Source: an uncultured Methanosarcinales archaeon (lineage in GTDB: Archaea; Nanobdellota; Nanobdellia; Woesearchaeales; GW2011-AR9). From it: a DNA stretch of 64,000 nt. The stretch covers positions 79 through 64,078 of the forward strand of contig CAYIEF010000003.1 of assembly GCA_964362365.1 (NCBI GenBank), written 5' to 3'. The position numbers were made by a program, and so were the translations under genes. Under the pieces are notes generated by a model, which saw nothing but the letters and a program-made list of their open reading frames with translations, had not been told where the DNA came from and made no database searches. Positions 46,977 to 47,088 of the stretch are shown here, piece after piece (position 1 is the stretch's first letter; each line of letters begins with the position of its first letter).

Positions 46977-47088
46977 GATAACAACAAATGACGCTCGGCG
47001 AAGCGGGGGTAGCCCCATCCGGGGTGCTGAGCAGGACAGGGCGAACGAAGTGAGAACTGGCCGTCGAGCCGTCATCATTGTTGTTATC
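46977..47088 (+). ncRNA. candidate structured ncRNA; strand uncertain
   Basis: Long closing helix GATAACAACAA...TTGTTGTTATC, then TGACG/CGTCA and GCTCG/CGAGC. Internal GGGG/CCCC hairpins. Strongly GC-rich within AT-rich DNA. Confidence 0.35.

Follow-up and report, generated by a model that had tools for sequence, protein, structure and literature searches.

What is the GC-rich hairpin at positions 46977-47088 (+ strand) of the 64,000-nucleotide stretch of contig CAYIEF010000003.1 analysed here, hereafter the window? A preliminary description had singled it out as a candidate structured non-coding RNA, and the locus raises the question of whether the hairpin is more than a chance fold and, if so, whether it serves the gene that follows it or stands on its own. 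On balance, we regard this element (copy A) as a member of a previously undescribed, multi-copy and dispersed family of GC-rich elements, about 90-125 nucleotides (nt) long, in DPANN archaea (Woesearchaeota/Nanoarchaeota). The family is defined by its single-strand RNA-type fold and not by an adjoining gene. Its homologues with compensatory changes are the strongest proof that the hairpin exceeds chance.

Re-reading the letters of the element bore out most of the preliminary description. The closing helices GATAACAACAA/TTGTTGTTATC, TGACG/CGTCA and CTCG/CGAG are present, as is the CAG...CUG stem, and GC content is indeed far above that of the surroundings (0.48-0.54 in 100-nt windows vs 0.24-0.31 in the flanks), the core of copy A being 65% GC. 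The GGGG/CCCC hairpin had to be redrawn, as of two alternative pairings covariation favours that of CCC (47014-16) with GGG (47022-24). The statement that no open reading frame (ORF) is present fails to the letter, since a mechanical 50-amino-acid (aa) ORF on the - strand overlaps the element, and holds in substance, that ORF being probably meaningless. The minimum free energy of the + strand is -48.2 kcal/mol vs -33.1 +/- 3.3 for 200 dinucleotide shuffles (z = -4.58), none of which is as stable; the - strand is less stable than the + strand, at -42.0 kcal/mol.

BLASTN of the element against 80 genome loci that share its gene neighbourhood gave no match, and the homologues at two of them (L003 and L004) were recognised by reading the spacers. 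An nhmmer profile from the three cores led to a fourth copy, in L013. Scanning metagenome contigs with a pattern of the invariant positions yielded 87 stretches, of which about 75 lie in contigs of low GC (32-57%) and can be aligned end to end; about ten matches in contigs of GC above 0.6 were discarded as coincidence inside a protein-coding gene. A covariance model (R1) gave 100 matches in the metagenome loci and, over the 80 syntenic loci and the window, six, of which the window and L013 hold two each and L003 and L004 a single one. With filters off, copy A scores 73.7 bits in the window. A weak match at 35137-35233 (+) in the window (11.5 bits, E = 0.5, GC 0.40, filters off) is probably noise.

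Neither copy A nor the other members scanned correspond to a catalogued RNA. ARAGORN and an Rfam scan of the whole window at the gathering threshold detected two tRNAs as the only known RNAs, and a permissive scan (E <= 10) of 46650-47250 gave chance matches alone, at 15-23 bits vs thresholds of 43-59. Ten other family members and the L013 member had no match in Rfam 15 (the ten at E <= 5), and literature searches found no published description of the motif. The judgement, made by eye in the preliminary description, that the element is not recognisable as signal recognition particle (SRP) RNA, RNase P RNA, 5S rRNA or a C/D small RNA (sRNA) agrees with the scan. With its conserved fold, abundant covariation and lack of an Rfam family, copy A supports the preliminary reading as a candidate structured non-coding RNA, and does so in a stronger form, as part of a new family.

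Homologues keep the fold, a three-way junction of helices P1, P2 and P3, through compensatory changes. Aligning 49 distinct copies with MAFFT (A4) supports this junction: the share of paired cells is 81.6% vs 64.1% after shuffling, and the covariation score is 0.452 vs 0.159 for shuffled alignments (0 of 500 reach it) and 0.06-0.11 for slid partners. In the revised structure, based on 85 distinct cmsearch matches, 85.2% of cells are paired, the score is 0.470 vs 0.158 (shuffled) and 0.05-0.08 (slid), and both sides change in 16 of 21 pairs. An independent RNAalifold run recovered P1, upper P2 and P3; its alternative pairing GGGG:CNCC for the invariant loop showed no covariation. G.U is the commonest state at two pairs in A4, which identifies the functional strand.

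Compensatory changes in P1 fall on pairs 12:132 and 13:131 of the 85-copy alignment and 13:98 and 14:97 of A4. P2 covaries at pairs 15:65, 16:64, 19:61, 20:60 and 21:59; the first of these, between the purine before CGAG and the pyrimidine after the 3' CGAG (AU 35, GC 26, GU 17), is absent from the alignment model. A pairing of column 16 with column 95 in the first structure was dropped, as covariation puts column 16 across P2. The tandem G.A/A.G positions of P2 give way to Watson-Crick pairs in some 15 of the 85 copies (UGCG/CGCA, CUUGAC/GUCAAG and, in copy B described below, GAGUC/GGCUC), from which it follows that P2 is one helix of eight pairs. Its cap helix, P2a, is 99.6% paired, with pair 32:57 appearing as CG in 44 copies, UA in 21 and GC in 14. 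Some copies retain the junction and lack the P2 cap. P3 has an invariant GG/CC base followed by a purine-purine or U:A pair; beyond it, copies differ in both the length and the sequence of the helix, compensatory changes are numerous, and roughly a quarter of copies carry the tip CGARC-NNN-GYGAG, in which A:U alternates with G:C.

About 30 nucleotides of the core are near-invariant, and the stems vary around them. Those that are unpaired comprise the GGGGWYGY loop, whose G positions are more than 95% conserved in the 85 distinct copies, the P2a loop NUNCG, the A between P2 and P3 (J2/3) and the GU between P3 and P1 (J3/1). Where J2/3 reads GA instead of A, J3/1 always has A instead of U, in five separate lineages, and this coupling suggests a contact across the junction.

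In most copies the element is closed by a rod of 17-27 base pairs (bp) in total, made of P1 with its bulged C, a 2-4-nt bulge on the 3' strand and an outer stem. Outer stems are present in most copies and differ in sequence between subfamilies, the recurrent types being A6-UCCAGCC.../...GGCUGGA-U6, GCAACAACA.../...UGUUGUUGC and GCGCC.../...GGCGC. 'Empty' outer-stem hairpins, which would be expected if the element inserted into the loops of pre-existing hairpins, were absent among the loci examined. Delimiting the element by minimum free energy was abandoned, as it over-extended into the AT-rich flanks. The parts of copy A and the features that accompany it are collected in Table 1.

Table 1. 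Parts of copy A, with the second copy and the promoter-like sequences of the window (window positions)
Feature	Positions	Strand	Remarks
Possible TFB recognition element (BRE)/TATA-like box TAATGATTTTTAGAA	46941-46956	+	resembles the neighbour gene's conserved promoter GAATGATTTATATAC
Outer stem, 5' arm GAUAACAACAA	46977-46987	+	perfect pairing with 47078-47088
P1, 5' strand AUGACGCUCG	46988-46997	+	family consensus UGRCG-N3-4-G
P2, 5' strand GCGAAGCG	46998-47005	+	G47000 and A47001 form tandem G.A with A47030 and G47029
Asymmetric loop GGGGUAGC	47006-47013	+	invariant; family consensus GGGGWYGY
P2a hairpin CCC-AUCCG-GGG	47014-47024	+	covarying helix
P2, 3' strand UGCUGAGC	47025-47032	+	covariation
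Junction nucleotide A (J2/3)	47033	+	A in 79/85 copies
P3 hairpin	47034-47062	+	base GG/CC plus A.G pair; tip CGAAC-GAA-GUGAG at 47042-47054
Junction nucleotides GU (J3/1)	47063-47064	+	G in 79, U in 71 of ~83 copies
P1, 3' strand CGAGCCGUCAU	47065-47075	+	single bulged C (47069), recurring across the family
CA bulge between P1 and outer stem, 3' strand	47076-47077	+	2-4-nt bulge here in most copies; sequence unconserved
Outer stem, 3' arm UUGUUGUUAUC	47078-47088	+	11 bp, perfect complement of 46977-46987
Copy B, second family member	42725-42868	+	55 nt 5' of the fpg/mutM start codon (42923; Fpg domains)
17-nt remnant UGGCGCUGACGUGACUG of a lost head-to-head partner	42715-42731	-	partly reused as 5' arm of the copy B outer stem
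BRE/TATA block ACCGAATGATTTATATAC of the membrane-protein gene	47123-47140		conserved, including in relatives without the element

The second member in the window, copy B, scores 36.1 bits in cmsearch with default filters (E = 5e-7) and 25 bits over 42737-42857 with filters off (E = 8e-5). Its outer stem is AGCGCCAUC/GAUGGCGCU, its P2 cap holds a 62-nt insertion and its P2 is Watson-Crick throughout. The 17-nt remnant beside it is identical to the first 17 nt (the 5' strands of P1 and P2) of the - strand partner in locus L082. The partial recruitment of this remnant into the outer stem of copy B speaks for selection on the long closing stem as such.

Such partners have a fixed geometry. At about 20 loci two elements lie on opposite strands within about 180-200 nt, the (-) copy invariably to the left of the (+) copy, so that the 5' ends meet. 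Where partners abut, each outer stem is formed by the complement of the other's P1 5' strand plus a short flank; the remaining pairs have separate outer stems 1-22 nt apart. Partners usually differ in subtype, one with the tandem-G.A form of P2 and the other with the all-Watson-Crick form. Several contigs carry two separate copies.

A recurrent neighbour protein was searched for, and none was found: the largest clusters of neighbour genes were duplicate loci, apart from a DDE transposase in five loci, and a sample of the neighbours proved to be ordinary housekeeping genes. Solo copies share the strand of the upstream gene in 19 cases and oppose it in 23, and all four orientations relative to neighbours occur at close to random frequencies. 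Two associations may be due to chance: a head-to-head pair lies 38-94 nt from the 3' end of endA (tRNA-splicing endonuclease) in L097 (195-944), L159 and L094, and a PD-(D/E)XK nuclease gene adjoins the element in L082 and L129/L144/L163.

The distribution of the element in its own spacer is patchy. The order phosphoesterase, tRNA-Asn, 86-aa ORF, spacer and membrane protein is common to 80 genome loci, across which the membrane protein (133 aa) is 54-96% identical. A homologous element occupies the same spacer in two of them, L003 and L004; at 75 of the 80 nothing GC-rich and structured is found at the spot. The L003 and L004 copies belong to a subfamily different from that of copy A (GAGCGAGG/CGAC vs GAGC-AGG/CCGUC), and between these two loci the element is 86-100% identical, compared with 56-78% for the flanking intergenic DNA. 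Given different deep subfamilies in the same spacer and closer relatives (L001) without a copy, independent gain at a permissive site fits better than inheritance followed by many losses.

Other extra DNA is also seen in this neighbourhood. GC-rich inserts with closing stems stand in the same spacer at L002:2545-2830, L006:2450-2612 and L010:2865-2905, with 5' ends CGYCTTGGCCG and 3' ends CACCTCT..GGCCA. The L006 insert contains a GUGAG/CGAAC tandem-G.A helix; by the covariance model the three inserts are unrelated to the family, and they have no Rfam match. Between tRNA-Asn and the 86-aa ORF, 700-1000 nt of extra DNA are found in L001, L003, L005, L006, L010 and L016 and not in the window (46644-46660). 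Extra DNA beside a tRNA gene in several relatives suggests an insertion hot spot.

The explanation that we favour, and consider somewhat probable, is that copy A is a self-contained RNA module, probably mobile, whose effects arise at the RNA level. As a rough division within this explanation, we lean towards a selfish mobile RNA-structured module and leave a smaller, though substantial, share to a small RNA family used by the host. The element would be transcribed from its own TATA-like box or by read-through. With both ends locked in a duplex of about 20 bp or longer, a compact, exonuclease-resistant RNA could persist, and the invariant junction and P2 loop may provide a specific binding or active site. 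Patchy distribution and different subfamilies in one spacer would then reflect gain and loss like those of a non-autonomous mobile element, and the fold would be conserved since either the element's own propagation or a host ribonucleoprotein (RNP) requires it. A stable sRNA, one of the two roles offered in the preliminary description, may be correct and forms part of this explanation.

Promoter-like sequences in the window are consistent with the first of these steps. Copy A is preceded by a TATA-like box TTTTTAGAA at 46948-56, which would put the start on the first bases of the outer stem (about 46977-46979), and copy B by a TATA-like box TTATAGAATTATA at 42691-703, positioned for a start at the base of its outer stem. 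A weak T peak appears at -28 to -25 in 31 curated copies. Autonomous transcription is plausible for the window copies, judging by these boxes, and is not established for the family.

Several points weigh against the explanation as a mobile RNA module. Both window copies have a suitably spaced promoter-like box, but only about a third of solo copies do. Target-site duplications were not found flanking the 31 curated copies, no pair of empty and filled sites with clean boundaries was found in the spacers examined, and no dedicated mobilising enzyme was found among the neighbour genes. As the spacer does not align with empty sites, the exact limits of the element cannot be fixed. Eight contigs from the same population (Hainich well H51) all retain their copy, with no presence/absence polymorphism, and enrichment at contig ends is weak (13 observed vs 8.6 expected, p = 0.08). 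A purely selfish repeat would not usually have a core so strongly conserved across lineages, nor would a genome of about 1 Mb usually hold a whole set of near-equivalent sRNA genes. Finally, the metagenome pattern demanded the core motif, and the sample is biased to conserved cores.

The best-surviving alternative, although we consider it unlikely, is a cis-acting repeat of the kind of repetitive extragenic palindromes (REP) or miniature inverted-repeat transposable elements (MITE), working as a terminator, an insulator or a stabiliser of mRNA 3' ends, with the junction as a site for a host DNA- or RNA-binding protein and each head-to-head pair acting on transcription from either direction. 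The element is intergenic and GC-rich, and it occurs in either orientation, singly or in inverted pairs. Many of its A5-6...U5-6 outer stems resemble bidirectional terminators, and a U-tract directly follows the stem in the AAAAAAUCCAGCC...GGCUGGAUUUUUU subfamily and in copy B (CTTTTT). Copy A, however, has no U-tract after its stem (AUC, then AAAAAAUAAAAAA), and copy A, copy B and at least ten more solo copies lie between divergent gene starts, with no gene 3' end facing them. Moreover, a terminator or gyrase-type site would not need an invariant, covarying three-way core across contigs of 32-57% GC.

In its behaviour the element works most like a dispersed structured repeat, either REP/bacterial interspersed mosaic element (BIME) or MITE, but it departs from both in their defining features. 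Like REP/BIME sequences (REPIN), it is extragenic, GC-richer than its surroundings, hairpin-forming and multi-copy, is found in either orientation and often in inverted pairs, and can sit at gene ends. REPs, in contrast, are simple palindromes of 20-40 nt, species-specific and tied to REP-associated tyrosine transposases (RAYT), whereas the element is a three-way junction of 90-125 nt with about 30 invariant nucleotides, covarying across many DPANN lineages; no RAYT-like gene was seen among its neighbour genes. Nor do the element's pairs resemble REP pairs, as partners of divergent subtypes each keep their own fold and do not pair with one another.

With MITEs that form RNA hairpins (for example Correia, ERIC and archaeal MITEs) the element shares a terminal stem like an inverted repeat (17-27 bp), many copies and a presence that varies among relatives. 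A survey reported a high density of MITEs in one Woesearchaea genome, 105 per Mb, and did not describe the present element (PMC11602168). Unlike a MITE, the element has no target-site duplication, and its terminal stems change compensatorily instead of staying constant as transposase sites, the conserved part being the internal core. In L102, L154, L167 and L108 a copy lies within the only insertion sequence (IS) associated with the element, of the DDE_Tnp_1 type, past the transposase stop codon and before the right inverted repeat, a position that would suit a cis-acting repeat. However, the inverted repeats of this IS (TACAGTATCTCCGA) are unrelated to the element, which is internal cargo and shares no ends with it; in L124 a pair of elements lies just outside such an IS.

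A less probable alternative would make the element a catalytic RNA of a new class, self-cleaving or otherwise, that travels with a small mobile or viroid-like unit, with the opposite-strand pairs as its plus and minus ribozymes. Similarly doubtful is the broader proposal of a new catalytic RNA class or RNA-fold-dependent mobile element of DPANN, for example a self-cleaving or self-ligating three-way-junction ribozyme, in which the head-to-head pairs would be the DNA form of a two-polarity ribozyme unit spread through an RNA intermediate. Much of the architecture is suggestive. The element resembles small ribozymes (hammerhead, twister, hatchet, pistol) in its compact multi-helix junction, near-invariant junction nucleotides, freely varying stems and dispersed occurrence in contexts rich in mobile elements, and it resembles viroid-like units in the close, strictly head-to-head placement of opposite-strand copies; tandem G.A pairs extend one helix, as in hammerhead stem II, and no known family matches it.

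Nevertheless, no cleavage site can be named, and none of the defining ribozyme cores or Rfam ribozyme matches was found. A hammerhead was rejected outright, as the junction strands read (R)CGA, GAGYA and GU instead of the hammerhead core (CUGANGA / GAAA / UH). The G.A pairs are dispensable, being replaced in otherwise intact copies, and the copies that lack the P2 cap keep the junction. All copies are chromosomal, and phage and plasmid collections gave no match to the element; scanning viral contigs with the core pattern gave a single match, a chance one in GC-rich coding DNA.

It is hardly credible that the element is a diverged or rearranged form of a known RNA such as 5S rRNA, SRP RNA, RNase P RNA, a tRNA-like RNA, an H/ACA or C/D sRNA or a Y RNA. 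Its size and three-way junction are 5S-like, the strings CGAAC..GAAGUGA and GAGUAGGG recall 5S motifs, and a Y RNA is brought to mind by the bulged C in the long terminal stem. Against this, no Rfam model matches (E <= 10 for the window element, E <= 5 for ten members), the motifs stand in an order swapped from that of 5S, variants within the family (CGAGC-AAA-GCGAG) depart from the 5S strings, and C/D or ACA boxes in the right arrangement are absent. Several copies, head-to-head pairs and absence from close relatives are also incompatible with a housekeeping RNA. The same reasoning rejects 5S rRNA specifically (no RF00001 match, motif-like strings reversed, multi-copy, missing from relatives), and Y-RNA models in Rfam matched neither the window element nor the ten members.

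Other candidates were discarded on structural grounds. A K-turn or k-junction (an L7Ae site) is contradicted by the lack of a 3-nt bulge beside the G.A pairs in P2 or the P3 tip, and by the dispensability of G.A. A bulge-helix-bulge substrate of the splicing endonuclease has a 3-nt bulge on each strand with 4 bp between the two, whereas the 3' strand of the element bears both of its bulges, one of 1 nt and one of 2-4 nt, with about 6 bp between them. For an integron attC site, the ends fail to match the R''/R' core sites (RYYYAAC...GTTRRRY), and copies are solo or head-to-head and not in cassette arrays. Sequence and family variants together also ruled out C/D box and H/ACA RNAs, a tRNA-like fold, the thiamine pyrophosphate riboswitch, SRP helix 8, the conserved regions of RNase P, a hepatitis delta virus-like topology, group II domain V, the sarcin-ricin AGUA/GAA motif and an anti-Shine-Dalgarno mimic. 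HgcC/HgcE-type RNAs, an example of the orphan structured RNA motifs that GC-island or comparative-genomic searches have revealed, are similar in being GC-rich islands of stable, conserved fold in AT-rich intergenic archaeal DNA, but the element is multi-copy, paired and patchy and not a single-copy gene, and it has no Rfam 15 match.

A role in the expression of the gene that follows remains to be considered. The preliminary description had placed the element between tRNA-Asn and the gene of a 137-aa four-transmembrane (TM) protein. The placement is right in outline, although an 86-aa ORF that is kept in relatives (46647-46907, -) intervenes; the protein is better read as 133 aa, as the start is most likely the ATG at 47196, matching the start of its homologues. 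It has 425 homologues, from Woesearchaeota or Nanoarchaeota wherever named, and 48 residues are invariant over 32 of them, without a Pfam family. In relatives, the spacer contains two promoter blocks that are conserved, TTTTATATAAAATTA belonging to the 86-aa ORF and ACCGAATGATTTATATAC to the membrane-protein gene, with a variable stretch between them that measures 10-50 nt in L001, L005 and L007-L009, all of which lack the element. Copy A occupies this variable stretch, upstream of the membrane-protein promoter. The Shine-Dalgarno-like sequence of the gene also lies 3' of the element and is conserved in element-less relatives. With a conserved promoter between element and gene, the mRNA starts downstream of the element, which the gene does not require; copy A is not part of the downstream mRNA leader.

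The other role given in the preliminary description, a cis-regulatory leader or riboswitch of the four-TM protein gene, is therefore very improbable: the element lies on the gene's strand, 108 nt 5' of the ATG, and solo copies share the strand of the downstream gene more often than not (32 same, 19 opposite), but 78 of the 80 syntenic loci lack the element despite the similarity of their proteins, no downstream gene is common to family members, and the closing stem of more than 20 bp has, unlike a riboswitch, no alternative expression platform.

Very few non-coding RNAs are known from DPANN archaea, and the tiny genomes of these organisms leave almost no DNA to spare; yet this element is tolerated in several copies, in a constant head-to-head arrangement and within an IS. 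If mobile, it would be a repeat identified by an RNA-type fold rather than by transposase-binding ends; if a host RNA, it would point to an unknown RNP; and if catalytic, it would represent a new ribozyme class. The covariance model lets annotators mask or mark such elements in DPANN metagenome-assembled genomes.

Some further features of the window were recorded. The tRNA-Asn(GUU) gene (46553-46643) is interrupted by an intron at the canonical 37/38 position (ARAGORN, Rfam), which marks the host as an archaeon; intron length varies among relatives, with a gene span of 73-146 nt by Rfam (L003:1412-1557). A very strongly conserved promoter/leader block, ACCGAATGATTTATATACATAAATGTATTT...ATTAGAGGTGA, lies upstream of the 133-aa gene in the window (47123-47190) and in all close relatives. 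Between copies A and B are an ORF of rve-type integrase/transposase (44011-44946, -) and one of MazE/AbrB-type antitoxin (45060-45335, +).

A diversity-generating retroelement occupies 38384-40796 of the window, its reverse transcriptase being encoded about 6 kb from copy A. It contains two 91-nt repeats, at 38943-39033 and at 39442-39532, with 87% identity; wherever they differ, the second has an A, the signature of a template repeat and a variable repeat. The first repeat is at the 3' end of a 282-aa target ORF (38384-39232), and it is followed by a 120-aa ORF (39567-39929) and the reverse transcriptase (RVT_1, 1.3e-18) at 40017-40796. Further along, 57831-61602 holds four paralogous units in tandem, each about 950-1000 nt long, which share 64-89% identity over the repeated blocks and resemble a tandem gene family.

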